This document shows positions 4,462 to 63,795 of a stretch of DNA of 64,000 bases, one piece after another. Origin of the DNA: Prorocentrum cordatum (Eukaryota); assembly GCA_963575745.1 (NCBI GenBank), contig CAUYUJ010000002.1, positions 620,001 to 684,000 on the forward strand, read 5' to 3'. A program made the position numbers and the translations under genes. Each line of letters starts with the position of its first letter. The stretch's first letter is position 1. The notes under the pieces are model-generated. The model made no database searches. It was not told the origin of the DNA and worked only from the letters and a program-made list of their open reading frames with translations.

Positions 4462-4712
4462 AGTTAGGGTATGTAAGGTTAGGGCTTGTAGGTTTAAGGC
4501 ACGTAGGGCCAGTCAGGTCAATTGGTTATGTAGGATTAGTAGGGTCTGTACGGTCAATGTTTATATGGTAAGAGTATGTAGGACATGTCAGGTTTGCAGG
4601 GCTCTATTATTTTAGGATGAGGGTTTGTAGGGTTGGTAGGGTATGTAGGGTTAGGGCGTGTAGGGTTATTGTATGTAGGGTTATGGTATCCACGGTTAGG
4701 GTACATGAGGTT
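4462..4712 (+). repeat. Degenerate TAGGGT array, resuming at ~5872-5925 after the foldback insertion
   Basis: tagggtatgtagggttagggcgtgtaggg units. Confidence 0.75.
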
Positions 4713-4716
4713 AAAA

Positions 4717-10099: not shown

Positions 10100-10705
10100 A
10101 GGGAGGATGAGGAGGAGGAGGAGGCGGAGGAGGAGGAGGAGAGGGCGAGGATCAGGAAGTAGGAGAAGGAGAAGCAGGAAGAGCTGGAGGAGGAGCGGGA
10201 GGACGACCCCCCACTCGCACGCCTGCTACCCCCCCACCCGCCGCTACCGCCCGTCTGACCGCCCTCACGTCATTTTGCTAGCCTCACTTCTAGTTGCGCC
10301 GCACTGGTTGCACTTCGTTCGGGGGGTGGAGGCTGGGGAAGGAAGAGGAGGAGGAGGAGCAGGCAGAGGAGGAGGAGGAAGAGGAGAAGGAGGAGGAGGA
10401 GGAGGACGAGGAAAAAGTCTAAGAAAAGGGGGAGGAGGAGGAGGAGGAGGAGGAGGAGGAGGAGGAGGGAGGAGGAGGAGGAGGAGGAGTAGAGGAGGAG
10501 GAGGAGGAGGACAGAGGAGGAGGAGGAGGAGGAGGAGGAGAATGAGAAGGGGGAGGAGGAGGAGAAGGAGGAGAAGGAGGAGGGCGACGGCGACGACGAG
10601 GAGCAGGCGAAGACAGGAGGAAGAGGCAGGGAACGGCAGCAGGTGGGGGGCGGGCAGGAGGCAGGCGGGAGGCAGACGCAGGCGGGCGGAAGGAGGACGA
10701 GGAAC

Positions 10706-10759
<54 letters not shown>

Positions 10760-10864
10760 CAGCAAGCCGAAGCCCGCAAGACCCCCGCGAGGCGGCGCGC
10801 CTGCTTCTGCCGCACATGGCGCGGGGCGGGCCCCAGGCCAGCGCGGCCCCGGCGGTGCCCCCCC

Positions 10865-10950
<86 letters not shown>

Positions 10951-11000
10951 GACGAGGACGACGACGACGACGAAGACAAAGGCGATGGCGATGGCGGAGA
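10100..11000 (+). repeat. Compound microsatellites (GAG)n, (GGCA)n, (GGC)n, (GAC)n
   Basis: Directly visible; explains the poly-R/S/P/D ORFs in this region. Confidence 0.9.
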
Positions 11001-11102
11001 CGAAGGCGGCGGCGGCGAAAAGAAAGGAGGACAAAGGAGAAGGCGGAGGCAGCAGGCGGGGGGAACGGAGGCCTGTGGGGGGAAGAGGCCAGGAGGACGA
11101 GG

Positions 11103-21309: not shown

Positions 21310-24300
21310 CGGGCGTCGTCGTGGTGGTGGTGGTCATGCTGGTGGTGGTCGTGGTGGTCGAGGTGGTCGTCCTGGTGGCGGTCGTCGCGGTGGTCGTGAT
21401 GGAGGTGGTCGTGGTGGCTGGTAGGCGTGGTCGGTCTGCTAGTAGTGGCTGGTATGTGTGGTCGGTCTGTTGGTGGTGGTCGTAGTGGCTGGTAGGAGTG
21501 ACCCCCGCACGGCGGCGGTGGTGGTGGCCGCAGTGGTTGGCTGTAGCCGCCGCGTTCTGGTCGTTGTCCTGGTCGTAGTGATTGTGTCTGCCGCAGCGGC
21601 TGTCGTGCTGGCGCTGGTCGTTGTCGCGGGGGCCATGGGGCTTAGCGCCCGAGCGCGCTCAGCAGCATCTCAGCATTTCCCCTTTGGAGGGTCCTGCTGA
21701 TCTGCCGCCAGAGACCGCCCAGCAGCTCGGAGCGGTCGGCGTCGTCTAAACCGGCTCCGTAACTGCGGACAAAGTTGGCTGCTTCGTCGCTGGGCCGGCC
21801 CCCCGTCTCGAAGACAAGAGGACCAGTTTTCCTCCGTGCGGAGGGTAGCGCTCGCGCTTCTGTTCCACCGCCTGCGCGGCCGCCAGTCCGTCTCTCTCGG
21901 CCCGGGCCCCCCTGCGTGGAGCGTAGGTTGAGTGTACGCAGGTGATGCTCGCGTCGATGAAGATCTGGCGGCCGCTGGCCGGGTCGCTAGTGGAGAGGTC
22001 GAGCACTGCCTGTTGGAGCTCGCCCGTGCGGGTGTGGCGGCGGTCCCAGGCTGGGGCGGCCTGCTCCGTGGGCGCCGCGAAGCCAGTGAGTTCCTTGTGC
22101 TTCGCGGAGTGCCAGTCGCGGCAACTGTTGTGGCGGTTGTTGCGCGACGCGCCCACCCCGCACTTGACTGCGTGCCAGCCATGCGGGTCGAGGGGCTCGT
22201 TGCAGAGGCTTCCGTCCTGGCGGTGGTGCTGGCATGGAGAGCCAGGCGGCCAGACGGGGATGCCGAGCCGACGCTTGAGATTGCAGCAGAAGTGCGGATC
22301 TGGCTGGCGGGGTTCGTCTGGCTGGCGCGGGAGGAGCCAACTGCCGGCGCCAGTGCCTCCGTTTTCCCGCAGGCGCAGGCGGTGGTTTTCGTCGTGCGCC
22401 CGCAGCAGATTCCCCCTGTTGGCCGCGGAGGCCGCTCTGCCCCAGTGCCCCTGAAGCTTCGGCTGCGGTTCGGCGGCGCAGCCAATCCAGTCAAAGGGCG
22501 CCTGGAGGACGTCGGCCGCCCGGAGCGCCGCTTCTGCCTGGTCGAGCGTCTGTTTCGTCCTCGGGCAGCGGGTCCGGAATTCCTGCAGCGAGTTCGCCCC
22601 CAGGCAAGCCATGACGTCGTGAAGCAGGAGGGCCCAGCTGGCGGCGTAGGCGGCGGGCGCCGCCTGGGTGGCTGAGGGGAAAGCACATCCGCCGTCGGAG
22701 AGTCGCAGGGTGGCTTGGAGGCGTAGCGGCGCGTCCAGGGGCCCGCCAGCGAGCTGCTCGAGGCAGCCGAAGAGGACAATGTCGAGCTGCTCTGTCCAAT
22801 CCCCCTGCAGGTTGGCGCGGAGGTGGTGCGCGAAGCACCCCCGAGCGAAAGTCAGGAGGAGAGCGAAGGCGCTCTCAGCCCGCAGGCCCGCCTGTCGCAA
22901 CTCTTGCAAGCGGGCAGCAAACGCCGCGGCCTTGGCCACGGCCGTAGCTCCGTCTAGCCCAGCGTGGACGGCCACTCGTTCTTCCCCCCCTCCCTCCCCT
23001 CTCCGCTCCTGCTCGAGCCAAGGGGCGGTGTTCCCCAGGCAGGTGAGGTTGTCCACCCAGCGCCCCTGTGCGGCGGCAGGCAAGTGGCCGCGCCCTCCGG
23101 CAGACCACGCCTGAGTCTTCGTCTGGTTGACTGCAAGTCCGTGCCGCGTTAGGGAGTCGGTGACCACCTGCATGGCTGCGTCCGCGTGTTCTGGCGGGGC
23201 GAAGACCATGATGTCGTCGAGGTAGCTGAACACCCTGCAGGAGGTCGAGAGGGCCTGGAGGCGCGTGTAAACATCGTCCAAAGCGTCCGCAATGCCGATG
23301 GCAAAGAGCGCTGGCGAGAGCGGGCACCCCTGGTCCACGCCGCTGGTAGCCCGAATGCGGTGGGCGTCTTCGGCGGGGTCGCCCCACCAGTAATGCCGCG
23401 TGGTTCCCGTGAGCCAGTGGTGGGTGCACTGGAACAGCCGCGGGGCCCGACGACGCCAGCTGTCCAGGACCCTGTCGCGGGGGACACTGCTAAAAGCGTT
23501 AAAGCAGTCGAACGCCAGAGCAACCCCGAGCGGGCAAGCCTCCGACAGGGCTGTGAGGCACTTGTGCACGAGCTCGCACCCCGCCGCGCGCCCGACGGCA
23601 TATTGTTGGGGGCCGACTGCGCCCTGAACGTCGTCTTTGTAGACATCGCAGGCGGCTCTCGCAGCGAGCCGGCGGAGGACAGAACCGCACGCAATCGGCC
23701 GGAGTGTTCCGTTCCGCTTGCGCTGGGCCAGCAACCGGGCGCCAAAGTTGGCTCGCGTCGCCTCGGGGCTGAGCTTGCCGAGCAGGAAGGCGACCGCGAC
23801 CCTGGCCACCACTTCCAGAGCGTGGGTGTCGGCAAGCAAACGTGCGCCAGTGTTCAAAGCGGCTGCCGTTTGGGCCAGGTCCAGAGCGGCGCGGGCTCTT
23901 TGCGAGGCCCTTGACCACGGCCGCGGCCAGGGCAGCGCGAGTGTCGTCGTCTCTCGCTGATGGCACTTCCAGGAGGCGTTGTTCTGGCTGCTCTGGGAAT
24001 AGGCCTTGGAGGCCAGCCTGGACGCCAGCCCCCGAGGCCAGCGCGCTGGGGCGGAGGGCTCGCTGCATTGCCTTGCTGACAAGGTGTTCGTCCAGCAGCG
24101 TCTCTACCGCCCGCGCGTCCTGCTTCGCCGTCGGGGCACCATCTCCTCTTCTCGGCCCGCGGCTCGCAGTCGTAGTGGATTCGCGCCAGAGACCTCCCCA
24201 GTCCCCTTGCTCCGCCATCCGCACGCGCCTCGTGAGGATGCGTGCCAGGCCACCCGTTTTGCGCGCCTTCTGGCCACCGCGGGTCTTCCCAGGTTTGAAG

Positions 24301-28059: not shown

Positions 28060-28310
28060 GGAGGCCCCCAGCGGCCCTCAGAGGCGCCCTTGGCGTACCC
28101 GCCCAGGGGCGGCCCTCGGAGGCCCTCGGTGCCCTTCGGAGCCCCTCGGAGCCCCTCGGCGCGCCCCTCGGCGGCCCTCGGAGGCCGTCGGTGCCGTTCG
28201 GCGGCCCTCGGAGGCCCTCGGCGCGCCCTTCGGCGGCCCTCGGAGGCCCTCGGTGCCCTTCGGAGGCCCTCCCTCGGTGGGCCGCGGAGGCCTTCGGGCG
28301 CCCTCCAAGC
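28060..28310 (+). repeat. GC-rich minisatellite (ggccctcggag)
   Basis: Short tandem units cctcggaggccctcgg. Confidence 0.8.
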
Positions 28311-29005
28311 CCTCCGCGCGCGCGCGCGCCCGCCGCTGGAAGGCGGCGGGGCAGCCCGAGGCCCGGCGTGTCGCTCCCGAGAGGGGCTGCGGCGCGCGCC
28401 GTCCTCCCGGCGCTCCTCCGCGGCCCAGCTCCTCCGGCTTCCCCGGGTCCGCTGCTCCTGCCGCTGCTGCTGCTGCCGCCGCCGCCGCCGCCGCCGCTGC
28501 TCCTGCTGTTGCTGCCGCTGCTGCTGCCGCTGCTGTTGCTGCCGTGACGTTGCTCCTCCCCTCCCTCCCCTCCCCCCCTCACTCCCTCCCACTGCTCCCT
28601 GCCTTCCCCTCTCTCCCTCCCCTCCCTGGCATCCCTTGCCTCCCCTCTCTCCACTCCCTTGGTCTGCATCCGCATCTGCGTTGTGCACGCCCATGGCACT
28701 GATCCTAGCATAAGATTGTTTCGCAGATGCGTATACGAGTCTTGAGTCCTGAGTCCCTCCGCTCCTCTGCTCTTCCTGATCGTTCCCCTGCTACCGCTGG
28801 GACCCTTGAAGCTGCTTGTCACCATCCTCCCCCTGTTCTGCCGTAGCGTTGCTCCTTCTTCCCCTCCCTCTCCCCCCTAATCCGCCACCACCTCGTCCTC
28901 CGATGCTCGCAGCTCCCAGGTCCGCTACGACACGCGTCGGCGGATAGAGAAACATATCGGAACGGTGGGAGGGGCAGAACGTCAGATATGGCGCGAGTGC
29001 ACCTA

Positions 29006-29173
29006 CGGTGGGGGCGTTCGTTGAGGAAAGTGCCCAGGAGACGTCAAACCCTGGAGGGTTCCTTATCTCATGAGGGCGACGGCGATATCCATGGCAAGTT
29101 CGCGATTTGAATTCCGCTGGCTTCCAGACCCTGGATTCCTTATCGAAGGTTTCCTTATCCAGTGCCCCCACCG
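29006..29173. mobile_element. Tc1/mariner-type MITE family F with TA TSD
   Basis: TA|cggtgggggc...gcccccaccg|TA; second copy in opposite orientation at 52669-52836. Confidence 0.85.
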
Positions 29174-29726
29174 TAGCTTGCCCCCCTCCCCTCTCTTCAC
29201 TTCACACTCGGGGACCGCGGCAGCTGCTGCTCACCATCCTTCTCCTCCTGTTCGTCCACCCTCCGCCTCCTGTTCCTGCACCTTCTGCCCTTCATCCAAG
29301 GAGAGGAAGGAGTGAGGGAGGGAAGGAGGGAGGGGGGGAGTAGGGGGAGGGTGGGGCAAAGGGGGCACGAGAAGCAGGAGCAAAAGGGGGGACGAGGAGG
29401 AGGAGGAGATGAGGAGGAGGAGGAGGAGGAGGAGGAGGAGCAAGGGAGGGCGGGGCAGGAGGAGGAGCAGGAGGAGGAGAAGCAGGAGAGAGGAGTCAGA
29501 GCATGAGGGATGGGAGGGAAGGAGGAGGAGCAGGATCGGGAGGGGGGGAGGAGGAAAGGGATGAGAAGGAGGACGAGGACTCGCCTCAGCAGGAAGCAGG
29601 GTCAACACGAGCGATGTCAGTGGGAAGTAGTTGGGCACCCGTTGGCTGCCGCAGTGTGCCCCTGCCGAGGGCCTTGCTGCCACCGGTGCGCTTGCGCGGG
29701 ACGCCCTCTCGCTCCCCCCCCTCCTA

Positions 29727-29838: not shown

Positions 29839-30613
29839 TTACCCTCACCCGCGCAGGAGAGGGGAGGAGCAGGAGGAGCAGAGAAGAAGACACCCACGAA
29901 GAGGGAGGAGCAACAGGAGAGAGAAGAGGGCAGAGGAGGTCAGGAGCAAACATGTCGTAGAATGTTCGTAGATAGATTCATGTTTATGCATCTCGTTCGC
30001 AGGTTCGATGAAGCGAATGTGGGGACAACGCAATTCTGCAGTCGTCCCCTGCTCGAGGTCTTGGGCCTAGACTGCAGGCCCCTTCCCCGGGGCCGGATTC
30101 CCGCGGCGGGCCGTTTTCTTCGACGGCCCCCCCCCGGGGCCGCGGCGAGGGCCCCCGCGGTGCCGCAGCTGGCCCCAAGGCCGTCTGCCGTGCCCGCGGC
30201 GCGCGCCGCGACGCCAGCGGGGAGCGCGCCCCTGGGGGGCGGCGGCGCGCCAGGTCGAGTGCCCCGCCGGCGGGAACGCCACGGACGGCGTCTGCGCGGC
30301 GCGGGGCCCAAGCGCCCTCTCGGGGGCCTCCTCCTCCTCCTCCTCCTCCTCCTCCTTCTCCTCCTCCTATTCCTCCTCCAATTCCTCCTCCTCCTCCTCC
30401 TCTTCCTCCTCCTCCTCCTCCTCCGCCTTGCTCGCGCTGGTGCGGCCCCCGGCGGTGGGGATGAGCAGCGGGGCGGGCCGAGGAGGGGAAGAGTCGAGAG
30501 TCGGAGGGAAGGCGAGGGAGAGGGCTTGGCGACAGGCGGGAGGACGACGACGACGACGACAAGACGACGACAAGACGACGACAAGACGACGGCGACGACG
30601 GCGGCGGCGGCCG

Positions 30614-35633: not shown

Positions 35634-35790
35634 CGGGACCTCGGTCTCGCGGACGCGCACTTGACCCTCGCCCCTGAACTTGAGCCAGAGCGCGGTGGCG
35701 TCGACGACGGCCAGCTCGGCGAAGGTCTCGGGGCCCACGCAGAGGAGGCGGAGGTCCTCGGAGCCGCCCTTCGCCACCAGGTGCACGAAC

Positions 35791-35798
35791 CTCGCCCA

Positions 35799-35869
<71 letters not shown>

Positions 35870-35891
35870 GCTACTGCTACTGCTACTGCTG

Positions 35892-35923
<32 letters not shown>

Positions 35924-36399
35924 GCCACTACTGCCACTACTACTACTACTCACTACTACTAACTACTACCACTAACTAACTACGACTACTACTACATCTA
36001 CTACTAACTACTACAACTACTACTACTTAAACGACTACGACTACTACTACTACTCGACCAACTACTACGACTAATGCGCTACTTTTACTACTACTACTAA
36101 CCTACTACCTACACTACTACCTACTACATAAACTACACTTACTACTAACTACAACACTACTAATACAATACTACTACTACTAACTACTACTACTACTACT
36201 GTTACTGTTACTACCTGTACTAACTGTTACTAACTTGTTTACTACTACTACTACTACCAACTACTACTACTTACTACTACTACTACTACGACGACTACTA
36301 CTACTACTACTACGCACTAAAACTACTACTACGAACTGCTGCAACTACTACTACTACTACTACTACGAACAAGTACTACTACTACTACATTAAACGACG

Positions 36400-36430
<31 letters not shown>

Positions 36431-36616
36431 ATAACACACCTACTACTACTACTACTACGAACTACTACTACCACTGAATTACTACTACTACTACACTACT
36501 ACTACTACTACCTACAATTTCTAATTTCCTACGAAACTACTTACTAACCACTACAACTACTACTACTACTACTACCACGATTTCTATCTAACACCACCAC
36601 TATTACTACACTACTA

Positions 36617-36662
<46 letters not shown>

Positions 36663-36689
36663 AACTACTACTACTACTACTACAACTAC

Positions 36690-36757
<68 letters not shown>

Positions 36758-36823
36758 GTACTACTACTACTACTACGACTACTACTACTACTGCTGTTAC
36801 TACTACTACTACTACTACCACTG

Positions 36824-36869
<46 letters not shown>

Positions 36870-37085
36870 GACTGTTACTACTACTATTAATAGTACATGG
36901 TAGGTGTGCCTGGTAGCAGTGCTTGATAGTAGTAATGGCAGTACTACCTGGTAGTAATAATTACTTGTCCCACCTGGTAGTAGTACTTGGTAGTAGTCGT
37001 ACCCGGTAGTAGTAGCAGTAGTAGTAGTAGTAGTAGTAGTAGAATCTGGTAGTGGTAGTGGTAGTAGTAGTAGTAGTAGTAGGTC

Positions 37086-37122
<37 letters not shown>

Positions 37123-37323
37123 TAGTAGTAGTAGTAGTAATAGTAGTATTACCTGGTTGTACTAGTAGTACCTGGTAGTAGTGGTAGTAGTAGTCCTAGT
37201 AGTAGTAGTAGTATCACTTGGTAGTAGTAGTAGTAGTAGTAGTAGTACTTGGTAGTAGTAGTAGTACTAGTACCTGGGAGTAGTAGTAGTAGTAGTCGTC
37301 GTCGTAGTAGTAGTAGTAGTAGT

Positions 37324-37383
<60 letters not shown>

Positions 37384-38184
37384 CAGTAGCAGTAGCAGTA
37401 GCAGTAGCAGTAGCATAGCAGTAGTAAGTAATAGTAGTAGCTAGTAGTAGTGGTAGTGGTAGAGTAGTAGTAGTAGTAGTAATAATAAATAATACTAAAT
37501 AATATAAAATGTTATGAATAAAAATTAGTAGCAGTAATATATTTATATTATGTATGGTGAGTTTTAAATTAAAATAATTATTTTATCATTTAATATTTAA
37601 ATTAATATTTTAGTTTAAGTTTTATATTAATATCGTTTTTTTTTAATTGATATTGATTTCTTATAGATTAATTTAAATTAAGTCATTAAGTCTTGAACTT
37701 ATGATTTCTTTATTTTACATTATATATGATAAATTTTTATTTTTTGCTTTTATTTTTAAATTTAATATTTATTATCATAATTGATTGGATATATGTTATT
37801 AAAGTTTTCCTTGTTCTCCAAAGCCGCCTTTCAGCATAACTAGTGGTTTCTGCGGTTGTAAAATTATCTAATATGTACAAGACTGTCTCAAACCTCGTAT
37901 TAGTAACAGTACTAAGAATAACCAGTAGTGGCCAAGTCGTTGTCGCTGGCCCCCTTTCGCCGCCGCGGGCGCGCGTCGCGCGCTCGGCGGCCCTCGCCTC
38001 GGATCTCGCGCAGGGCGCGCTCGATCCAGAGACTCGTCCACTTACTCGCAGCAGTAGTTGCAGTGTCGAGCAGTACTCGTACTGATCACTACGAGTCACT
38101 ATTTTCCGACAACCACTACTACTAGTAGTATTACTGATTACGACCGCTACTACGACGAACTACTGCTACTACGATTCGTACTGC
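35791..38184 (-). other. 2.4-kb GC-AG intron made mostly of (CTA)n then (TAG)n microsatellite plus an AT-rich block
   Basis: gac ag|gcagta...gggcgag|g ttc gtg cac joins TWATADR to FVHLVAKGG in frame. Confidence 0.65.
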
Positions 38185-46010: not shown

Positions 46011-46238
46011 AGGCTTCCCAGATGGATTCGGAGTAGATGGGGTCGGAGGATCGCGCCGCATCGCCGATGCATCGGCGATGCGGACCCGATTTCCTGCACG
46101 CCAGCAGCGCCGATGCACCGCCGACAGCGCCGGTGCATCGCGAGTGCAACGCCGATGCATCGGTGATGTATCGCCGATGCATCGTGGATGCGGCGCGATC
46201 CCCCGACCCTATCTACTCCGACCCCATCTAGGAGGCCT
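46011..46238. mobile_element. MITE family G (also 47269-47432 and 47756-47963)
   Basis: ~45-bp TIR aggcct....gatggggtc.g...agatggggtcggaggatcgcgcc with internal catcgccgatgcatcggcgatg palindromes. Confidence 0.85.
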
Positions 46239-46918: not shown

Positions 46919-48807
46919 GGCGTACGAGCACTCGGCCACGCGCAGAGTGGAGAAGGGGAAGGGGGAAAGGCGTCTTAGGAGGCTGCTTTTCAGAGGGCGT
47001 GGGCCTCGTCTATAGATGTAGGGCCGGCGCCTTCTAGGGAGCAGCCTCCTTCTAAGAAGCCTCCCCCCCTAACCCCCCAGTGCGCGCCGCCAATCTACAG
47101 TGCAAACGTTCGAAGAAGGACTACTCTGGGCTCAGGCTGGGCTGTATCATGAGGCCGTTACTGAGATCCAGGTCGTGGAACCTCTTGGTGGCCGAGACTC
47201 GCCGTCGCCAGACATGCCCCCTCATTCCTTATTCAGCGTCTCTTATGGTAGCACGATGACTGTGGGGTAGGCCTCTCAGATGGGGTCCGAGCAGGTTAGG
47301 TCGGAGGAATTCGCCGCATCGCCGATCCAGCTCGATGCGGAGCTCGATTTTCTTCACGCCGACATTGCCGATGCATCGGCGTGGCGGCGCGATCCTTCGA
47401 CTCCATCTGTTCGGACCGCATTTGGGAGGCCTCCAGAAGCGCTTCCCCTCGTGGTGAAATGATCACGGCGGGCGTTGGGTTGTCATTTTCGGTATTTCGG
47501 GCCTTCATCGGGCCCCATGACCGTCAACGAACGACGCAGTGAGGAGCAGGTTGCTACGAGGAAGGGGTCCAGATCTGGGGTTCCAGGTCGGCAGGCCCCC
47601 CCGAGACCAGAGCACGAAGAAACCAGAACACGGAAAGCCAAGGAAACGGCACCCCTTTCTTGCAGAGGCACATTTTTCAGCACCCGTGCATGTTTTGTTG
47701 GCTGCGCTGCAGGATTCTGGCGTGCGCTTTTAGGACCTGCGTCCGGTTTGTTTCTAGGCCTCTTGGATGGGGTCCGAGGAGACGGGGTCGGAGGATCGCG
47801 TCGCATCGCCGGTGCATCGGCGATGCGGCTCGATGTGGAGCCCGCGTTTCTCCGCGCCGACGCATCGCCGATGTCGCCGATGCATCGACGATGTATCGCC
47901 GATATATCGGCCAAGTGGCGCGATCCTCCGACCCCATCTTTTCCGACCCCATTTAGGAGGCCTCTATTGTTCTGGACATGTTGCAGAACAGTGTGTTGTT
48001 CGTGCCGGCGTCTGGGAAGATTGGTTTCGAGGGGTGCTGGGTGTCCGGGTCCAGCGTGTACAGGGTTGCGGGGCCCTACCTCAGAGTTCAGGGATGGTCC
48101 CAGGCAACGACAGGGGGTTCAAGCAGTGCCGAAGCGTCCTGGTGCGCCTGCAGGCTCACACAGGCATGTTATAATGATCCGCCGTGAATTGTATGTCGTG
48201 CTTTGGAAACATTTGGGCCGAGGCAGTCCTGTTTTGAGACATCGGTTTCAGGTCATAAGAACATTGCTCTTGCTCTTAGGGCACTCTGTGTTCTAAAAGC
48301 CTGTCGTGGCAGGCCTAGAGAATACCAGGACGGTCGGTCCCGATTCAAACTCCGAGCGTTTATTTATACGTCTAGGCTGTGTGTGTCTCCTTACACTGAG
48401 GCTGTCGTCCTTAAGTCCCCGTCTCCCTCGGGGTCCCATTACTGAGTCGCCGAGGATTGCCTCTGAAGTCCGTCTCCGTGCCAGGGAAGGGGGAGGGCTT
48501 CTTAGAAGCACCCCTGCTCCTTAGACGGCGCGGGCCTTGTCTGTATATGCAAGGCCAGCGCCTCCTAAGAAGCAGCCTCCGTCAAAGGCTTCTTAGAAGA
48601 ACCCATGTTTCTTAGAAGGCGCGGGCCTCGTCTGTATATAGATGTAAGGCCAGCGCCTTCTAATAAGCAGCCTCCTTCTACGAAGCCTTCCCCCCGAGGC
48701 GGGAATGTAATATATATAAATAAATAAATATATTATATATATATTAGATATATAATATATATATATATATGACCACGTCCTGGAGGGTCAGTTTTCGGAA
48801 CCTCGGC

Positions 48808-48923: not shown

Positions 48924-50459
48924 TCGCATTCCCCCCTTCCCCTTTCCCCTGCTACTTAGAAGCACCCCTGCTCCATAGAAGGCGCGGGCCTCGTCTGTAG
49001 ATGTAAGGCCAGCGCCTTCTAAGAAGCAGCCTCCTTCCACGAAGCCCTCCCCCCTCCCCCCACCAAGCCCCTTTATCGCCGCCGCCATGAAGGAGGAGGA
49101 GGAGCAGGAGGAGGAGGAGGAGGGAGCGAGAGGAGCGCGGAGGAGCGAGGAGGAGGAGGAAGAGGAGGAGGAGCGAAGAGGAGGAGGAGCGAGGAAGCGA
49201 AGGCGGAGCGAGGAGGGGAGGAGGTGGAAGGAGGAGGAGAGGAGGAGGAGGAGCGAGAGGGCCCTCTAAGAAGCCGAGCCTCCTTTTACGAAGCCCACCC
49301 CTGTGCGCGCCGACGAGCAGGTCCTCCGCCGCCGCCTCCCCCGTGGGGTCTCCGTGGCCCCCCTCGCCACCGCGGCCGGCGCCCCAAGAGGAAATCCAAA
49401 AGGAGGCGCCTCTGTCGCGAGACTAAGGGCGCCCGCGAGACGAAGGCGCCCTCGAGGGCGCGAGTTGTTCTATCTTCGCCGGCCGGCTCCCGATTCCTCC
49501 TCATCCGCCTCTTCTCCCCGGAGGCGGGGCGCGAGAGCGCGAAGTGATTCGCGGGAAGCCCAGTCCGCGGACCAGGCTGACCTGAACGCACCCTGTGTTG
49601 CTGGGACTTCGGGCTGTGTTATGTTTTTCGGTTTTGGCGGGAGGTGCAGAAGAACAAGTAGAGCAAAACGAAGCACTAAACGAAAAACAAAACGACAAAC
49701 AACGTTTAGGTCCAGCCCTGGGAAGGCATCTCTGTCTCGAGGCGTTACAGACGCCCAGAGCCCCCTGGACACAGAAAAAACCCATTTCGGACGCGGAGCC
49801 ACCCTCTCCAGCCACCGAAAGCCCCAACGGGATACATGCGGAGACCCATGCTTGGACGCAGCACAAGCCGAAGTTCTCTCTAGAGGGGGGAGGGCCCGGG
49901 GACCGGCTGCGCGTGGGGAGGCATTTGCCGCCAACGCCAAGGCCCGCTCGAGGAGCCAATTCAGCGTACAGTCAGCACAGTCATTGAGGATGAGCGGCTT
50001 TCCAAGGGTACACCCACCCAGGATTTCACAGTGAAAACAGGGGGGGTCTGGTTTGAGTTGTCTTGGAGGATTCTGGTGGTCTAAGTGGGCAAATCGGAGA
50101 CAAGACATCAGTGGCTTCGAGGTTTGGGAGAGCAAGTACAATGAGCAGACTGCCGCGACGTCACGTTCACGACATCATGTCAATGGGGTCGCATCGATTT
50201 CAGCCCCTTGTGATCGAGGGGATGCTTCCCGATTTCGTGTCGGAACCGCGGCGCGGGCCCAGCGCGGGCATTATCGGGTGCTTGTGGTCGATCCATCGGT
50301 AATGTATCGTCGAGTCTTGGTCGCTATCCATCTGTAGTCGATGCTTCCCCTCCTGAGCTGGGTTGAGAAGTGACTAATCCTGGTCGATGTCCATTCCTGG
50401 TCGCTATTCATTCTTGGTCGCTATCCCCTCCTGGTCGACATTCCTGCTTCCCCCCACAG

Positions 50460-51124
50460 GAGGAGCGACTGATCGCACGGAGCGCGAGTCCTCCGCACGG
50501 GTGGAGAGGTGGCGGCCGCGAATGCCGACCGCGCGGAGCGCCGGCGCCGGCGCGCCAGCGCAGGCGCAGGATGATCCCGTGGAGCGGTTGTTCCGCGCCC
50601 TGGACGAGGACGCCGACTCGAGGATCTCCTTGGCCGAGTGGCAGCAGGCCTTTGATGGCATAGACAGGGATTGCGACGGCATCATCACGCGCAAGGAGTT
50701 CGCGCTCGCGGGGGGCGAGACGCGCATGTTCGACTCCCTCGACCGTAGGCACAGGTGCGCCCTGCGGCGGACCGAGTGGCAGGCCGCGTTCCTGAGCGTG
50801 GACGCAGACCAGAGCCGCGAGATCACGGTGGCTTGACATCGCTCGGACGTGTGCATTCATTTTTCTCTGCGAGGACCATCGAGGAGCATCCTGGATCATC
50901 GTGGGGAAAATACACACGACATCGAAAAGTGCACATGGAATAAACGTCCGAGCGATGGCCAGGTGGCGGAGTGGAGGGAGTGGGTGAGGAACGCCACCAG
51001 CAGGGTGGGCCTCTCGGGCCAGCAGGTGCAGCGGCTGGCGGAGGCCCTCAGGGGCAACGCTGGCGGGGGGTATAGGCTCAGGGGGGGAGGCATCGACCAC
51101 CAAACGCCCACTGATCGTTCGTAG
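50460..51124 (+). CDS. EF-hand Ca-binding protein; exons 50460-50827 and 50963-(51124)
   Basis: Loops DEDADSRISLAE, DRDCDGIITRKE, degenerate DRRHRCALRRTE, and DADQSREIT|VAE completed only by splicing; upstream acceptor cccacag|g at 50459 (in-frame ATG at 50522). Confidence 0.8.
50828..50962 (+). mobile_element. Introner: 129-bp MITE (family C) plus 6-bp TSD forming a 135-nt GT-AG intron
   Basis: GGTGGC at 50827-50832 and 50962-50967; TIR ttgacatcgctcggacgt / acgtccgagcgatggcca. Confidence 0.9.
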
Positions 51125-52668
51125 GGGCCATCAGGCCTAGGAGTGTGCGGTTTCGCCATCGCGGGTCCATGGCCGACCTGTCGGCGTTTCATCGTCGATT
51201 CCAGCCCGATGCCCCCCCCCCCCTGAGCTGGCCTTTCCCCGTGACATCCTCCCTGTAACTCTGACGTCGTGTTTCCTATTCACAGCGCGGACCCCCAGAG
51301 GTCTCGATCCGTTTCTCAGGGCCGGATTTTTACTCCGATCCGCTTGGAGGGGCATCCCGGTGCCAGGCGAGGGCCCCCGGAGGCCAGATCTTTGCCAGAA
51401 ACCTCCCGTCGTCTGATTCTTCACATCGAGCGGACGCGGGGGGCCCTCGCCCCCGCGGCTGGCGACGGTGCGCAGACCTCCGCGCCCTGGGGGGCGGGGC
51501 GCTGCGGAGGAGGAACGGGGAGGAGACTCTGCGAAGGAGGCGCGGGGAGGAACGGCGAGAAAGAGGAGAAAGAGGATGGCGGGAGGGACGAGGCGGAGCG
51601 AGGAGGCGGAGAGAGGAGGAGGAGGAGGAGGAGGAGGAGGAGAAGGAGGAGGATGGGAGTGGAGGAGTCGGAGGAGGGAGCGACCCCCCCTGAGTTCTGA
51701 CGTGGCGAAGGAAGTCTGCAGCGTCACGAAAAGTCATGACCGGAGCCTCAGACCCCACCTTTCTGCGCTATGTTTCGAGCCAGGTCGGTGTGCGACGGAC
51801 CTGGGGCCCGAAGCCGGGTGAAGACATCGCAGTGCAAGGACCTCAAGGAGGGGAAGTGAGAGTGGGCAGGCCGCCTCCTCCGAAGGCGGTGGAGCTTTCA
51901 GAAGCCCTGGCGCCTTCTGAGAAGCTTTCTAAGCCTTCCCCGTAGACGGAGACGGTCTCTCCAGAGGCTGGAGAGCTTTGAGAAGGCCCGCCGCCTTCTA
52001 AGAAGGCCTGCCCCCTCACGAGCGGCCGACAAGCAGAGCGCCTCCTGAACCCAAAGATGGTCCTTGCTTCCCCGATTGGTGTCCGCCCTCTTTGCGCCGA
52101 AGTAGAGATGCCAACCTGTCGATGCCTTCAGGTCCAGGCCCGTGCTTCTTCTGGCCGCGCAGGGGTGTCTGGGATCGAGGGGGTCTCTCAGGTGCAGCAC
52201 CTGGCGGAGGCCTGGGACGAAGACGGGCGGGGTGGGAGGATGGAGTGAGGGGGGAGGCGGAGGAGGCGGGAGGGGTAGAGGAGGCGGAGGGGGCTGAGGG
52301 GGGAGGAGGAGGAGGAGGAGGAGGAGGAGGAGGAGGAGGAGGAGGAGGAGGAGTGAGGAGGAGGAGGAGGAGGAGGAGGAGAAGAAGATCGGTAGGTAGA
52401 TAGGCAGGTGCCGTCCCGAAGAGAACTCCATGCTGGCCTGCGGGCTCGGGTCCTTCGGCAGAGGGCCGCAGGGCCACGGATGCGACTGCGCCGGCTCCAC
52501 GACGTCCGCCCAGGATCAATCGATCGGAAGCATGTCAGAGGCGACGATAGGGGCGAATAGCCCAGGGAAGAGCTATACATGTATCCAGGGGCGCCGATGA
52601 TCTATGTCTTCGACAAGGCTCCCGGGCGAATAGGTGTGGGCATTGGATAACGGTGGGGGCGTGGATTA

Positions 52669-52836
52669 CGGTGTGGGCATTGGATAAGGAAGCCTCAGAT
52701 AAGGAATCCAGGGTTTGGAAGCCAGTGGAACTCCAATCGTGGATCGGCCATGGATATCATCGCCGCCCTCATTGGATAAGGAATCCTCCAGGGTCTGGCG
52801 CCTCCTGGGACTATTCCTTAACAAACGCCTCCACCG
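52669..52836. mobile_element. MITE family F inserted after a TA of the 8760-type element
   Basis: Reverse complement of 29006-29173; flanks match the uninterrupted site gggggcgtggatta|gcgacgggtcccg at ~8783-8810. Confidence 0.8.
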
Positions 52837-53220
52837 TCACGACGGGTCCCGCTTCCATGGTAGACCGCGGATTTCCGCCGCCGAACACGGCGGCACTGGC
52901 CGCATTTAGGGGATGGCTCCTCCCCGGATCCCCGGATTCAGCGACCGCGCGCCAAATCCATGGATTGCTGATCCATGTTTGCGCGCCCCCGATTGGGGAA
53001 AGGGCAGGCTCGCTCGTGCGGGGGGGAGGGGGGCAGGGCGGGGGGGGCGGCCCGCGGCTGCCTGGCCCGCTCCTGCTCGCCTCCGAACCCTGGCCTGCGC
53101 GGAGGAGCCGCACCCTCGCCCGAGGAGCGCCGGGGAAAAGGGGGGGAGGCTTGAGTCGGGCATGCCCCCCTACAGGAGGACTATTCAAAAAAAAGAGATC
53201 GTCAGGGGACGATGTTTTTT

Positions 53221-53361: not shown

Positions 53362-56300
53362 TTCATCATCATCACCATCATCAGCAGCAGTCCTCGTGCA
53401 ACTCCCTCAAGAACACGATCTCTCTGAAGACGTTTTCGAAAGGATCAGGGAAATCAAAACTCTCATGTTTGAAGCAGGCAAACTGAGAAAAAAACGGTGT
53501 TTCCTCCACCCCCCCCCGAATCGCGGGCGGAAACCTTGCCGTGGGCGTTCGCGGTGAACCGTGCCATGAAACGCCAAGACTCGAGGACTGTCCTTTCTGC
53601 CATTCATGCGGTCCCCGAGATAGGAACGTTCATCAGCACTGCGCCGTTGATGTGGCTGGACAAGCCCGCCTTCCACAGCTTTTCTGCCGCCCGCGGTCGT
53701 GCTCTCCCTGAAGAGCAGCTCGATGAGGTTGAGAATGGTCATCGCGCCTCTGCTTTCACAAAAGCTACCCGCAAACAAAGGAGTGCCCATCTCATGGCCC
53801 AGTGGGCCACCAGATCGCGTAGATTCTATATGTCAGGCGCTTCCCTTCCAGACGGTTCAGTCGAGTTCGAACCTCATGCTGCTGCCGCCGCTCTCGCACG
53901 ACACTTGGGGTGAAGTCCATCGCGACCATTCGACTCACACCGATGACCAAGAATGGTTTCTTCAATTTGCGCATGCCCGTCCATTCGACATCGATTGGAA
54001 GATCCCCTACCCCCTGTTCTTAAAGTATATCGAACAGCTTACGGACTCCAGCCCTGGCATCGATGGCGTACCATTCTCTGCCTGGCAAGCCAGCGGTAGC
54101 ACTGGCCTTAGTTCGCTGTACAGCTTCTACCTTGCCATCCTCGAGGCCTGCGAGGTCCAGGAGGACTTCAACACTGGGCTATGCGTTTTCCTGCCCAAAG
54201 TTTTCGGTGCTGAAGGACCCTCGGGTGTTGAAAGGTACCCTGAAACCACTCGTCCCATCACCCTTAACAATACCGGCATGAAAATCATATGTGGCCTCCT
54301 CAACCTTAGCCTTGCTAAAGCTGCGGAGTCCATTTGTGACGCCCACCAGAGAGGTTTCATAAGAGGACGCAACTCGTCCGACAACATCGACGGCTTTCTC
54401 GCGTTTGAAGCTGTGTTCCACGCGAACACAGAGGTAGGCTGCGCGTTCTTCGATTTCACCGCGGGGTTTCCCTCCCTGGACCATGGCTGTGTTTGGAAAG
54501 TCTTGTTGCGCATGGGTATCCCTGGGGCCATAGTTCGCGCGTTTCAAAACTTTTCCAATGTTACCATCAAGATTATGTTTGGAGGCGTTATTTCTGACGG
54601 CTTTCCTCTGTTGCGCGGAGTACGTCAAGGTTGCCCGCTCAGCGGCTCTTGATTTGCTTTTGCTCTTGACCTCTTCGCGCGCGCCCTGCTTGCCAAGCTC
54701 CCGGCTGACACGGGCGAGCTGGGCGCTTTCGCTGATGACATAGGTATCGTTTGCCGAGATGTGTTTCGCCAGCTGCCTGGCATTATCTCCGGCCTCCAGC
54801 GTCTAAGCCGTGCATCTGGCCTTACTGTCAATTGCAATAAATCTGTCATTGTCCCCTTTCGCTGCGACAGGGAAGCTGCTCTTCAGAAGTTCTCAGTACA
54901 CGGCCTAGACAATGCGGGGTTTAAGATCGATGACCGTGCAAAATACCTTGGGGTAGTGATTGGTCGTTCGGCGGCATTGCGCCCATGGCATGCCCCATCT
55001 TGTAAAGTTGTGTATCGTGCTCGACAAGTGAAAGCTGCTGGCCTGTCGCTATTAAACTCTATTGCCAGATTCAATTATGTGGGGACATCGGTCCTCCTCT
55101 ATGTCGGCCAGTTTTTTCCCGTCTGTCGTGAGGTTCGTAATGCTTATCGTGAAGCTGGACAGCTTCTCGCCCACAGCCCCAGATTCTCTATCCCTCACCT
55201 TGCGCTCCTCAAGCTCGAAGACCTCCAGCTGAAACCAAATCTGCGGGACCTGGGGTGCGAAGTCCGTGCCTCTATGTATCGGAATGCGCTTAAAGCTGCT
55301 GCATACCACCGCCAGGTTGGGATATTTGAGGAGCTATGGGAGGATGGGGACTACGTTGTGGCATGCAAATTTCAGCCTATGTTTCGTGACTCGACCTTCT
55401 TCTGTATTCACGAAAACGTTAAAGCTCTGTCTACTATCCCCGGTGTCCCTGTAAATTATTGGAACGAATCACACTTTCAGAGGCCTGTTTGCAAGCAAGC
55501 ACTTGTTTAAGTTGGACTCCAGACATGTTCGCGAGTCCCTTACTTTTCGGCTTAAGTACTGGAATCTAGAGCTCTCGCTTCAGGAAGTTGATACTGCGCT
55601 AATTCGTTTCGGGCGGGCTGCCAAACAGCTTGCCCCATTCGTTTTCATCGCCACCTTGAAAACGTGGACTAACAGTTGGAATGCCGCTGCTCGATACAGG
55701 AACCGAGCGACCCGCTGTAGATTCGGGTGCAGCTGTGAAGGTACCGACACGATGAAGCACTACCTTCGCTGCCCGCCCGTACTGTCTTGTCTCCGTCTTC
55801 TTATGCCTGCGCTTCCGTCATGGTGGGGGGGGGCCGTCTCATTCTCTGCCGCCTCTGGTCTTGCTGCGCCGCCCATCCCCAATTCCGACTCTCTTCTCTC
55901 CCTGTATATCGCCACGGATGCGATTAACGTTGCGTTTAATTCTCTCTGAGCTCGAGATATTATTCCTAGAGCCGCCGCCGCCTCCACGGTTCACGCCAGG
56001 GTAAGGGCCCTGTGTCGTAAGTGCGCCCGAGTGCGATGTCTGGCTGCTTCGCGAAGGAGAAGGACTGCCGCGGGGGGGAGTCCGCATCACCATCATCAGC
56101 AGCAGCAGCAGCATCATCAGCAGCAGCATCATCATCGTCATCGTCATGTCAGCATGGTCAGCATCATCATCATCAGCATTCAGCGTCATCGTCAACTTCA
56201 TCAAAATCATCACACGTTTCGTTTGCCTATAGGTAGCTCCACGAAGGTCCCAATGGCGCGGTTGGCATGCGTCTCCCCCCCCCCCGTACAGCGTTTCGTG

Positions 56301-58126
56301 GCCCCACTGGGAGCGGCACCGAAGGTCCCCGTGGCGCAGTCGCATGCGTCTCCCCCACCCAGTACAACGCTTCGTGGCCCCATAGGGGCTCCGCCAAAGG
56401 TCCCAGTGGCACAGTCCGCAAGCGTCCCCGCCATTCATTCGTGCCCACTCCTACACGTTTCGTGGCCATAGGAGCTCCGCCGAAGGTCCCAGTGGAACAG
56501 TCCGCATGGCGTCCCGCCATTTTTTCATTTCGGCCCTCCCCCTCGCACGTTTCGTGGCCCGTAGGGGCTCCGCCGATGGCCCCGTGGGGGCAGTCCGCAT
56601 TGCGCCCCCGCCGTTCATTCGGACACACCCCTCACAGTTGGAGGGCCCATAGGGGGAAGGGGGGGGCGCCTTTGACCCGGGGGGACGGCCAGTGGCACAG
56701 TCCGCATGCGGCCCCGCCAGTTGTCGGCACACCCAACCTCACACGTTTCATGGCCCCTTAGGGGCTCCGCCGAAGGTTTTCCCTGGGGCACAATTCGCAT
56801 TTGCGCCCCCGCCACTCATTTCCGGCCCACCCCCCACATTGTTTCGTGGCCCCATATAGGTCTCCACCGAAGGTTCTCAGTGGCACTTCCGGCACGCGTT
56901 CCCCGTTATTACATTTCGCACCCCCTCACACGTTTCGTGGCGCCATAGGGGCTCCGCCGAAGGTCCCAGTGGCACAGTCCGCATGCGTCCACGCCACTAA
57001 TTTCGGCCCACCCGTCATACGTTTCGTGGCCCCACGGGAGCTCCGCCGAAGGTCCCAGTGGCACAGTCCGCATGCGTACCCGCCACTCATTTAGGCCCAC
57101 CCCTCACACGTTTTCGTCCTGGACCAATAGGCAGTCCAGTCGGTCAGTGGCACTGTCCGCATGCGTCCCAGCAATTCATTTCGGCCACCCTCGGCACGTT
57201 CCGTGGGCCCAGTAGGGGCCCGGCCCCGTAGGGGCTCCGCCGAAGGTCCCCGTGGGGCAGTCCGCATGCGCCCCCGCCACTCATTTCGGCACACCCCTCA
57301 CACGTTTCGTGGCCCCATAGGAGCTCCGCCGAAGGTCCCAGTGGCACAGTCCGCATGCGTCCCCGCCATTCATTTCGGCACACTCCTCACACGCTTCGTG
57401 GCCCCATAGGGAACTCTACCGAAGGTCCCCGTGGCGCAGTCCGCATGCGTCTCCCCCGCCCAGTACAGCGCTTCGTGGCCCCATAGCGAGCTCCACCGAA
57501 GCGCCCAGTAGCACCGCCCGCATCCGCCCCACACCCAATTTGGTTTTTTTTAACTACCCAGTACAGCGTTCCGTGGCCCCATAGGGAACTCAACCGAAGC
57601 CCCCAGTGGGACCGCCCGCATGCGTCCCCCGTGCACAATTTGGCACTGTCACCCACCCAGTACAGCGTTTCGTGGCCCTATCGGGAGCTCCACCGAAGCC
57701 CCAGTGGGACCGCCCGCATGCGCCTCCCACGTATCCAGTTTTGCACGTTCACCCACCCAGGGCAGCGCATCGTGGCCCAATAGGGAGCCCCACCGAAGCC
57801 CCCAGTGGGGCCGCCCGCATGCGTCCCCCACATCCAATTTGGCATTTTCACCCACCCAGTACAGCGCTTCGCGGCCCCATGGGGAGCTCCACCGAAGCAC
57901 CCAATGGAACCGCCCGCATGCGCTAATGTGGTAGCTTCGCCCACCCAGTGCAGCGCTTCGTGGCCTCATAGGGAGCTTCAGCGACGGCCCCAGTGCTACC
58001 GCCCGCATGCGTTCCCCCCCCGCCCAGCGCAGCGCTTCGTCGCCCCATGGGGAGCTTCAGCCGAAGAAGATATTCACAATTGCGGTACCCACAACTTCAT
58101 ATGGTTGGGTCCTTTGCCAGGATAAT
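53221..58126 (+). mobile_element. Helentron/DINE-1-like non-autonomous element B with ~85-95-bp tandem array (56215-58060)
   Basis: 5' cccaaccat plus adjacent IR (tggtgttggg), microsatellite, tandem array, 3' atggttggg then tcctttgccagga; same ends at 59491-60030 and 62561 (minus). Confidence 0.65.
53391..56084 (+). pseudogene. 5'-truncated LINE (L1/Tx1-like) reverse transcriptase, with stops and frameshifts
   Basis: SPGIDG, RPITLNN, QRGFIRGR, DFTAGFPSLDH, GVRQGCPLSGS*, FADD, KYLGV, CRFGC..HYLRC; flanked by 21-bp direct repeat catcaccatcatcagcagcag (53370-53390 / 56085-56105). Confidence 0.9.
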
Positions 58127-58819: not shown

Positions 58820-60560
58820 AGCCCTGCTCAGTGCCGCTTGATCCGCGGCCGAATCCAGCGTAGTAGCCCCCCATTGGGGCGTAATCCTCCTTGTTCTTTC
58901 CGACGAAGACCTCCCAGCAGTTGCCTCCTAAAAAGAGCGGTCGCGTGTGCAGGGCTAGCTCTTGGACCAGTTGTCTCCGACAACGCTCTTCCACGATCTC
59001 CAGGCTGGCCGCTGGCCAGTCAGGCAGATCCCAGGACCCCAGTAGATGCAGCGATGCTCGCCACCGCGTGCGCCCTGGCGCCAGGTGCGCGCACGACAGT
59101 TGCTTGTAGAGATCGGATTCCAGCAACCTCCAAAGACCCGCCCGCCTCGAGGCGACGTCTAGGACCGCGCACCCCGAGCCCGACAGCGTCCAGCCCAGCT
59201 CAGCAGAGGCTGGGGCCGCCTGCTTCATGGCGGGCAGTCGAGGAATGTCCGCACCCACGTTGCAAATAGCGTTCGTCCGCTCTGGAGGGGGCCCTCTCCG
59301 CAGTGGCATACAGCCACTTGCCAAAGCGGAGCGATGGATCGATCTTGGACTCGAAGGACCTGGCGGCCGCGGCCAGGGGGTTAAGTCGGGCGTGTCCCTC
59401 TTCAGGAGGAATGTTCAGAAATAGTCCAACAATAGTATGGGGGCGATGTTTTGTCTATGTCTGGCTATGTTTGAGTTTTAGTTCAATGTGTTCCCAACCA
59501 TCCTGTGGTGTTGGGTCCTCGTTTTGAAGAGACGGTCCCCGCGTTCCTCCTCTCCTCCTCCCCCTCCCTCCTCCCCCTCCCTCTTCCTTCTTCCATGCGT
59601 TTGGGACCGTCCGCATGCGTCCCCCACACACGATTTGGCATTGTCACCCACCCAGTACAGCGCTTCTTGGCCCCATAGGGAGCCCCACCGAAGCCCCCAG
59701 TGGGGCCGCCCGCATGCGTCCCCCACACCCGATTTGGCATGTTCACCCACCCTTTACAACGCTTCGCTGCCCCATGGGGAGCTCCGCCGAAGCCCCCAAT
59801 GGGACCGCCCGCATCCGTCCCACACGCCCAATTTGGTATTGTCACCCACCCTGTGCAGCGTTTCGTGGCCTCATAGGGAGCTTCACCGACGGCCCCAGTG
59901 CTACCGCCCGCATGCGTTCCCCCCCGCCCAGCGCAGCGCTTCGTCGCCCCATAGGGAGCTTCACCGAAGAAGATATTCACAATTGCGGTACCCACAACTT
60001 CATATGGATGGGTCTTTCGCCTGGATAATTTATGTGTTGTTCATCAAAATCCGCCTGTAGGGGGACATGCCCGAGCGAAGGCCAGGGGTAGGAGACCGCT
60101 GGAGGCCTGCCCCGCCAGGGCAGCACGCTGCGCGGATGCCGCCCCCAGGCGGGAACCCAACGTGGCGCTCCAGGGACAGGCTCCAGTTCCATTGGCAGTC
60201 CGAGCCACACGTGCGGCCAGGGCATACGAAGCAGATTGGGCTGCAGGCCGCGCAGCGGGAGGAGCACTGGCGGGGCAGCTGCTCCTGCGGCTCGCGCGTG
60301 CTCGCCTCCGTGGGCCACGATATCCGATAGCATGTTGAGCAGGCGTGCTGCGTGAGGAAGTCCCCTGGCGAAGAGCCCACCCCGCCATCACCGAGTGCAA
60401 CTGCTGAGCGGCTCCGCGCGAGGACGCCAGCAGCACGGAATCGTCCGCGTGGGTGATGACCGCCAGCCGCGTCGTCGCGATAGAGCGCCCAGCGTTGCGA
60501 TGGCAGAGAATTCTAGGTCCACCTCCGCAACCTCTCTCATGGCGCCAACATCGCAGAGCG
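58820..60560 (-). pseudogene. Degraded LINE RT remnant interrupted by MITE A+B
   Basis: THADDSVLLASS..AQQL..VMAGWA (YADD-like), HVWLG (KWLG-like), then DLYKQLSCAHLAPGRTRW resembling the LINE C-terminal Cys motif. Confidence 0.5.
59380..60080. mobile_element. MITE family A containing a short element B (59491-60030)
   Basis: TIRs as in other family A copies; gccagggg on both flanks (59372-59379 / 60081-60088). Confidence 0.8.
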
Positions 60561-62560: not shown

Positions 62561-63795
62561 AATTAGCCTGGCGAAGAACCCAACCATATGCAGTTGTCAG
62601 TGCCGCAGCTGCGGGTTTCATCTTCAGTGGAACTCCCCATAGGACTACGGAACGTGTGAGGGGTGTGCCGAGATGGGTGCCACTGGGGCATTCGGCGAAG
62701 CTCCCTATGGGGACATGAAACACGCGCGGGGCGTGCCGACATGGGTGGCGGAAACGCATGTGAGGGCCGCCGCTGGGGCCTCCAGTGGAGCTCCCTTTGG
62801 GTCCCCGAAACATGATGCTGCTGCGGGGGGTGTGCCAGGATGGGTGGCGGAGACGCATGTAAGCGCCGCTACTGGGGCCTTCGGTGGAGCTCCCTATGGG
62901 GCCACGAAACGTGTGAGGGGTGTGCCGAATTGGGTGCGGGTGGTGACGCATGCGGGCGGTGCCACTGGGGCCTTCGGTGGAGCTCCCTATGGGGCCACGA
63001 AACCTGTTGTTGTGAGGGGTGTGCCGGGATGGGTGGCGGGGACGCATGTGAGCGCGGCCGCCGGGGTCTTCGGTGGGGCTCCCTATGGGGCCACGAAACG
63101 TGTGAGGGGTGTGCCGAATTGGGTGGGCGGGGGTGACGCATGTGAGCGCCGCCGCTGGGGCCTCCGGTGGATGATGGGGCCACGAAACCTGTCAGGGAAG
63201 TGCCGAAATGGGTGTGCGGGACACATGCGCATGTGAGCGCCGCCACTGGGGCCTTCGGTGGAGCTCCTATGGGGCCTCGAAACTGTGAGGGGTGTGCCGA
63301 ATTGGGTGTGCGTGACGCATTGCGGCGGCAGCACTGGGGGCCTTCGGTGGGGCTTCCCCTATGGGGGCCACGATAGTTGTGAGGGGTGTGCCGAATTGGG
63401 TGTGGGTGACGCATGCGGGCGGCAGCACTGAGGCCTTCGGCGGAGCTCCTATGGGGCCACGAAACGTGGGAGGGGTGTGCCGAATTGGGTGTGGGTGACG
63501 CATGCGGGCGGCAGCACTGGGGCCTTCGGTGGGGCTCCCTATGGGGCCACGAAGCGTGCGAGGGTGTGCCGAAGTGGGTGTGGGGGACGCATGCGGGCGG
63601 CAGCACTGGGGCCTTCGGTGGGGTTCCCCGCGGGGCCACGAAACGTGCGAGGGTGTGCGATTTGGGTGTGCGGGCAGCATGCGGGCGGGGGCAGAACTGG
63701 GGCATTCTGTGGGGTCCCTATAGGGCACGGAAAACGTTTTGTGAGGGGTGTGCCGAATTGGGTGTGGGTGACCGCATGCGGCGCGGGCAGCACGG
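62561..63795 (-). mobile_element. Element B, minus-strand copy with tandem array (other end not seen)
   Basis: aattagcctggcgaagaacccaaccatatg is the reverse complement of the B 3' end; units ccttcggtggagctccctatggggccacgaaacgtgtgaggggtgtgccgaattggg. Confidence 0.8.

Follow-up and report, generated by a model that had tools for sequence, protein, structure and literature searches.

An intron very probably made by a short inverted-repeat transposon in an EF-hand gene of Prorocentrum cordatum

An EF-hand gene of Prorocentrum cordatum, lying in a 64,000-nt stretch of genomic DNA (the window), is interrupted within one of its EF-hand loops by a 129-bp element that carries inverted repeats at its ends. 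The locus raises the question of whether this element is removed by splicing and, if it is, how the intron came to be there. A sequence-only reading of the same DNA had proposed that the element is a mobile one that built its own splice sites on insertion. The analysis reported here leads to the same view, that insertion of a non-autonomous DNA transposon into an EF-hand coding exon created the intron, i.e. that the element is an introner, and we put the probability of this at roughly 85%. The features of the locus are listed below, with a slash marking a splice border; all lie on the plus strand.

50458 to 50459, plus strand: acceptor AG of the upstream intron (ccccccacAG/G); contigs of runs X1, X2 and X4 fit from 50459 and have other letters before it.
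50460 to 50827, plus strand: exon 1 of the EF-hand gene; contigs cover it and match it at every letter; GC3 0.89.
50827 to 50832, plus strand: left direct repeat GGTGGC, presumed to be one copy of the target-site duplication; exon 1 ends with G50827, and the 5' splice site is the GT at 50828-50829.
50828 to 50962, plus strand: intron of 135 nt, GT..AG, phase 0; it consists of the 129-bp element, preceded by 5 nt of the left repeat and followed by 1 nt of the right.
50833 to 50961, plus strand: MITE-like element of 129 bp with termini 5'-T...A-3'; homology to the sibling copy stops at the same borders.
50834 to 50836, plus strand: in-frame TGA that ends the unspliced protein; the frame upstream reads ...gag atc acg gtg gct TGA.
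50837 to 50850, plus strand: core of the left terminal inverted repeat, CATCGCTCGGACGT; its reverse complement is at 50944-50957.
50944 to 50957, plus strand: core of the right terminal inverted repeat, ACGTCCGAGCGATG; 14/14 match with the left core.
50962 to 50967, plus strand: right direct repeat GGTGGC; A50961 and G50962 form the AG acceptor, and exon 2 runs from 50963.
50963 to 51043, plus strand: exon 2 (VAEWREWVRNATSRVGLSGQQVQRLAE), 27 codons; contigs fit to 51044 with 0 other letters; GC3 1.0.

The element differs in composition from its surroundings, with 50% G+C and no codon periodicity against about 70% G+C and a GC3 of 0.89-1.0 in the flanking exons. It starts TTGA-CATCGCTCGGACGT and finishes ACGTCCGAGCGATG-GCCA; beyond the perfectly matching 14-nt cores, the inverted repeats agree at 16 of 18 positions when the four outer bases are added, and the motif CATCG occurs four times within the 129 bp. 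Between 50701 and 51100, GGTGGC is found solely at 50827 and 50962. The element has the features of a MITE, being short and non-coding, with 14-nt inverted repeats, a direct repeat identical at 6/6 positions and more than one copy (the repeat of the sibling copy matches at 4/6). No transposase with the inverted repeats of the element was found within the window, and a search of the whole window against Rfam gave 0 matches.

As expected of an introner, the element accounts for essentially the entire intron, and the splice sites come from the target duplication and from the border between element and duplication. The GT of the donor is taken from the left repeat and the AG of the acceptor is made of the last A of the element and the first G of the right repeat, in the sequence as in the contigs. 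The sequence-only reading had described these splice sites, and the rest of its anatomy stood equally well: a 129-bp element with terminal inverted repeats flanked on both sides by GGTGGC, for which all coordinates hold, and an unspliced frame that stops at 50834. It had also claimed that exactly 135 nt are removed and the EF-hand loop restored. In a script comparison, exon 1 joined to exon 2 was letter for letter the sequence minus the element and one copy of the repeat, and the same junction was present in contigs from 4/4 runs.

At the protein level, exon 1 ends with ...DADQSREIT, the final T being residue 9 of the 12 that form an EF-hand loop, and its open frame was matched by the Pfam families EF-hand_6 (7e-10) and EF-hand_1 (2.9e-09). 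The joined product reads ...SVDADQSREIT/VAEWREW... and contains a 12-residue EF-hand loop (D1 D3 S5 I8 E12) that the intron interrupts in phase 0, between residues 9 and 10. The restored loop resembles the first EF-hand loop of the protein (DEDADSRISLAEW), which is not interrupted.

Splicing was assessed in public sequencing runs. Twenty of the 24 runs listed hold part of the locus, with shares of at most 0.22, and four (X1, X2, X4 and X14) were compared with positions 49500-51900. X14 is on record as poly-A RNA-Seq, X2 is guessed to be RNA, and the records of X1 and X4 give no kind. The evidence for the junction consists of assembled contigs, in 4/4 of the runs compared, rather than raw reads. 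In contigs of X1, X2 and X4, 50826/50827 is followed directly by 50962/50963; the 135 nt left out have GT..AG borders, and six letters fit on either side. These contigs agree with the window at every letter of 368 nt upstream and 83 nt downstream of the junction (451 nt). The X14 contig covers 50488-50832 and continues into a 9-nt loose end, GGAGTGGAG, which is identical to window positions 50968-50976 and represents the joined form. The joined form was therefore present in all four runs, and the junction of 50827 to 50963 predicted by the sequence-only reading was seen in RNA-derived contigs.

The contigs leave the window at 50459, at an AG that follows a pyrimidine tract, and at 51043/44, at a GC donor, and all three junctions of the gene share the form G/G(T/C)...AG/G. 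Because they carry three splice junctions, the contigs are taken to be cDNA, and they show true splicing at the predicted borders. The GC donor after exon 2 appears to lie at 51044-51045, a placement that carries a one-base ambiguity. The genomic stop codon at 51125-51127 is not the end of the transcript, which is spliced at 51043/44 instead. The exon that follows opens with a near-repeat of the preceding 19 nt; when a 16-letter word from the continuation past 51044 was searched for, the only similar stretch within the window was 51031-51046. Since the continuation is absent from the window, the next exon lies outside it or is unassembled.

The structure of the element was compared with a null model of 100 dinucleotide-preserving shuffles of the window, in which perfect inverted repeats of at least 12 nt at a spacing of 40-400 nt were counted. 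The shuffles held a mean of 1.95 such inverted repeats, and of 0.12 with a flush 5-bp direct repeat, so the structure of the element exceeds chance, with about 0.1 such structures expected per window. Folding of the 135-nt intron RNA gave one long hairpin of -56.6 kcal/mol, against a shuffle mean of -36.95 (z = -5.1), and 0/200 shuffles folded as well. In this fold UGGC (50829-32) pairs with GCCA (50958-61). Among 21 inverted-repeat structures, the EF-hand element is the only non-repetitive one whose removal joins open high-GC3 frames. The 20 other inverted-repeat structures of the window were rejected as introners because their removal joins no two such frames; 28278-28427 does join frames on removal and was discounted, since it lies in a low-complexity tandem-repeat region.

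Taken together, these features suggest the following course of events. A 129-bp MITE-type transposon would have inserted into the EF-hand exon and duplicated its target, GGTGGC. Since the duplication begins with G-G-T, its left copy offers a G/GT donor, and the final A of the element with the first G of the right copy would give the AG/G acceptor. The spliceosome would then excise the 129 bp and one copy of the repeat, 135 nt in all, leaving an mRNA equal to the sequence before insertion; the loop D-A-D-Q-S-R-E-I-T/V-A-E would be regained because the message equals the pre-insertion sequence. Pairing of the inverted repeats in the RNA would place both splice sites side by side, which may assist splicing. 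Both ends of the element present an A beside the repeat, so that either orientation may be spliceable, provided that the target starts with GG(T/C/A).

The element is not alone in the window. As the sequence-only reading had noted, a sibling lies about 50 kb away:

563 to 692, plus strand: sibling element, oriented alike; its inverted repeats are at 567-580 and 675-688.

The sibling aligns with the EF-hand element end to end at 77% identity (99/128) and shares with it the 14-nt inverted repeats and, letter for letter, an inner block of 22 nt. Its flanks, CAGAGT and GAGAGG, match at 4/6 positions, a weak agreement (about p = 0.04 by a by-hand binomial estimate). No strong GC3 signal was seen around the sibling, and none of the GY..AG segments there, if removed, would bring together two open frames of high GC3; intron status is demonstrated for one of the two window copies, that in the EF-hand gene. 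Searches with blastn-short and with an nhmmer profile built from the two copies found no third copy within the window. The family is represented more widely in the RNA contigs: many of them, derived from other loci, match sections of 50828-50901 with 1-5 differences and have flanks of their own. Added together, their depth rises to about 800 (X4), compared with about 5-10 for the gene. These many other-locus contigs indicate that the family is multi-copy and present in RNA. Both window copies start with T and finish with A, and two more left ends, seen as loose ends of contigs, also start with T. The inverted-repeat pair of the family and a looser pattern of its left half gave 0 matches in metagenome_contigs, and the family pattern gave 0 matches in viral_contigs.

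The proposal that the family was recently mobile was upheld in part. The perfect direct and inverted repeats of one copy and the high depth of RNA contigs with near-identical words of the element speak for it, whereas the two window copies differ by 23%, the sibling repeat matches at 4/6 only and the sibling has no evident coding flanks. As to the intron-less relatives that the sequence-only reading had proposed as a check, the exon 1 protein search gave no relative among near-length or longer proteins, and no related locus came up in the collections scanned.

Other repeats occur in the window, which holds 27 perfect inverted repeats under the definition used for the shuffles (at least 12 nt, 40-400 nt spacing; 1.95 expected) and is therefore rich in hairpin-type elements. 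A second short repeat family of about 171 nt is present at 29003-29176 (plus strand) and 52667-52837 (minus strand), in opposite orientation and at 82% identity. The 29003-29176 copy is bounded by a 13-nt inverted repeat (CTACGGTGGGGGC...GCCCCCACCGTAG); neither a clear flanking duplication nor coding flanks were found for the copies of this family. Foldbacks at 46034-46230 and 47784-47935 share the arm GGGGTCGGAGGATCGCG and have inverted repeats of 15-17 nt, which are nested in 46034-46230; they lie a few kb upstream of the EF-hand gene and probably represent a third family of MITE type. Reverse-transcriptase frames were detected at 21749-24103 (minus strand; RVT_1, 5.4e-21) and at 53651-55507 (plus strand; 2.7e-09 and 0.002, split by a stop), and are probably the remains of non-LTR retrotransposons. 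Tandem repeats comprise arrays with a 15-nt period and GGGTTAG-like units (telomere-like words) at 1391-2628 and 4605-4715, internal to the window and not at its end, and arrays of an approximately 99-bp unit at 57363-58020 and 59632-59925, with 61-92% identity between copies and inverted relatives at 63364-63538. Trinucleotide repeats, namely (CTA)n/(TAG)n, (GAG)n and (GAC)n, form very long arrays at 35730-37430, 10300-11070, 21120-21220 and 30290-30440, some of them as inverted pairs.

The sequence-only reading had described the GGTGGC repeat as a 6-bp target-site duplication. The repeat itself is present at 6/6 positions at the EF-hand copy; its length as a duplication is insecure, as GTGGC also precedes the element in contigs from other loci. 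In X1, X2 and X14, such contigs, about 360 nt long, begin to match the window precisely at 50828 and continue through GTGGC, TTGA and the inverted repeat with one difference. The letters before that point are unrelated to the window exon (12/30 and 11/28 matches by eye, not above expectation). In addition, three 31-letter contigs of X2, at a depth of 95-155, fit 50830-50857. Because GGC or GTGGC left of TTGA is common to other copies, the same introner might be read in a shifted register, in which the element begins with GGC at 50830, the duplication is GGT (3 bp) and the remaining three bases of the 6-bp repeat match by chance.

Several observations fit this shifted register. The other-locus contigs share GTGGCTTGA... 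from exactly 50828 after unrelated letters, the deep 31-letter contigs include GGC left of TTGA, and UGGC pairs with GCCA in the fold. Moreover, published dinoflagellate families mostly have duplications of 2-5 bp (2 to 5 or none given in 30 of the 293 rows of a published catalogue). Against it, homology with the sibling and with two other left ends, seen as loose ends, reaches no further than the four bases that precede CATCG (TTGA, TCGG, TCGG and TTGG), and the sequence beyond them differs between copies (GGTGGC, CAGAGT and CTGAAC). The shifted register also requires a 3-base chance match (about 1/64), and the 4/6 match of the sibling flanks is found at the 6-bp borders. On balance a 6-bp duplication is the likelier of the two, with reasonable though far from full confidence, and the GGT register is unlikely. 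The splice outcome is identical under either.

The GTGGC shared directly left of the element by two independent insertions, the EF-hand copy and that in the other-locus RNA contigs, also bears on how targets are chosen. It is a speculative suggestion, somewhat less likely again than the shifted register, that this is an undescribed introner family whose transposase itself picks splice-competent, GTGGC-like targets. If so, insertions at G/GTGGC-like sites would be born, in either orientation, as scarless GT..AG introns, and target choice by the transposase, beyond later selection, would explain the survival of the element in exons.

It might be argued that the element is not spliced at all, and that the transcripts come from an insertion-free allele, paralogue or strain, the window copy being a broken gene. 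An empty site and a spliced product are identical in sequence by construction, no contig representing an unspliced precursor, bridging exon 1 into the element, was present among the 32 pieces listed of 77, and dinoflagellate genes are often multi-copy according to a review. However, the contigs equal the window exons without a single other letter over the 451 nt, in four runs from several studies. A search with tblastn found no paralogue of either exon within the window. The borders are canonical, G/GT..AG/G, like the two other junctions of the gene, and many copies of such elements are reported as spliced in related systems. A broken, unspliced copy is accordingly improbable.

Still less probable is that the mobile unit was the 135-nt intron itself (GT...AG), spread by reverse splicing and reverse transcription instead of DNA transposition. 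The other-locus contigs do begin to fit exactly at the first base of the intron, 50828. Against reverse splicing stand the perfect terminal inverted repeats and the direct repeat on either side of the element, which are typical of DNA transposons that move by cut and paste. GTGGC is also absent from the sibling and from other left ends, and reverse splicing would leave the GTGGC after the acceptor as a 5-base coincidence.

That an older intron was later hit by a MITE can be dismissed, even though introns are frequent landing sites of MITEs and short inverted-repeat structures abound in the window, because nothing of another intron is left: the 135 nt consist of element and repeat bases only, which indicates an intron made by insertion and not one hit afterwards.

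Insertion of a DNA transposon remains the preferred origin of the intron, and the mechanism is that already published for introners, in which the target-site duplication of a DNA transposon supplies splice sites. The statement of the sequence-only reading that introner transposons create introns in dinoflagellates agrees with work on Symbiodinium and Polarella glacialis, where short inverted-repeat DNA elements constitute whole introns (Roy et al., bioRxiv 10.1101/2020.10.14.339549). For P. glacialis the same preprint reports 12,253 of these introns, belonging to 15 large classes whose duplications measure 3, 4, 5 and 8 nt; each splice site may lie in the duplication, in the element or across the border, depending on the class. 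The EF-hand intron resembles these elements, as they are described there, in taking its 5' site from the target duplication and its 3' site at or across the border, in its exact removal and in belonging to a multi-copy family; it differs in its 6-nt repeat, the length of which is insecure as a duplication.

Roy et al. credit the principle to earlier work on Aureococcus. In the introners of Aureococcus anophagefferens and Micromonas pusilla, the element brings one splice site and the target duplication creates the other (Huff, Zilberman & Roy 2016). The principle is the same here, while hosts and element sequences differ; set beside those introners, the EF-hand intron has a donor wholly in the duplication and an acceptor that spans the border. 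The introner elements of Amoebophrya have inverted repeats of 8-20 nt and direct repeats of 3-5 nt at the intron ends and show a transposon-like spread (Farhat et al. 2021, PMC7789003). Amoebophrya introns are mostly non-canonical as described there, whereas the EF-hand intron is GT-AG and is not of the Amoebophrya type in this respect.

For P. cordatum itself, and for other dinoflagellates, 'introner elements' were counted by pattern by Dougan et al. (Genome Biol 2023), who give a genome G+C content of 59.7%, compared with 61.4% for the window. The passages concerned provide a pattern count and describe neither the sequences of families nor where splice sites come from nor how long the duplications are. 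The G+C content of the window and the form of its junctions, G/GY..AG/G, are suggestive of a dinoflagellate. Gozashti et al. (PNAS 2025, PMC12130899) list dinoflagellate introner families in 293 rows, with categories that include 'co-opt 5' carry 3'' and 'co-opt both', both of which the EF-hand element fits; their DNA elements with terminal inverted repeats are about 100-300 bp long. The duplications given in the 30 rows cited above are shorter than the 6-bp repeat found here, again with the reservation on its length. The name Prorocentrum did not occur in the main text of that paper or in the 12 of its 14 supplementary files that were searched. Three words of the element (13-15 letters) had no match in the literature text searched. 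As to whether the element had already been described, a point left open by the sequence-only reading, its kind is well described and its family was not found in the text searched.

The general picture is unchanged by this locus, since transposon-made introns with duplication-derived splice sites are established and hundreds of families have been catalogued. With the EF-hand intron comes a further family, whose target duplication may be 6 bp long, from a G+C-rich genome in which introners have at most been counted by pattern. Set beside the known systems, it offers an unusually clean single-locus picture of the birth of an intron, in which one insertion accounts for every intron base and the message, split inside a recognisable protein motif, is exactly restored.
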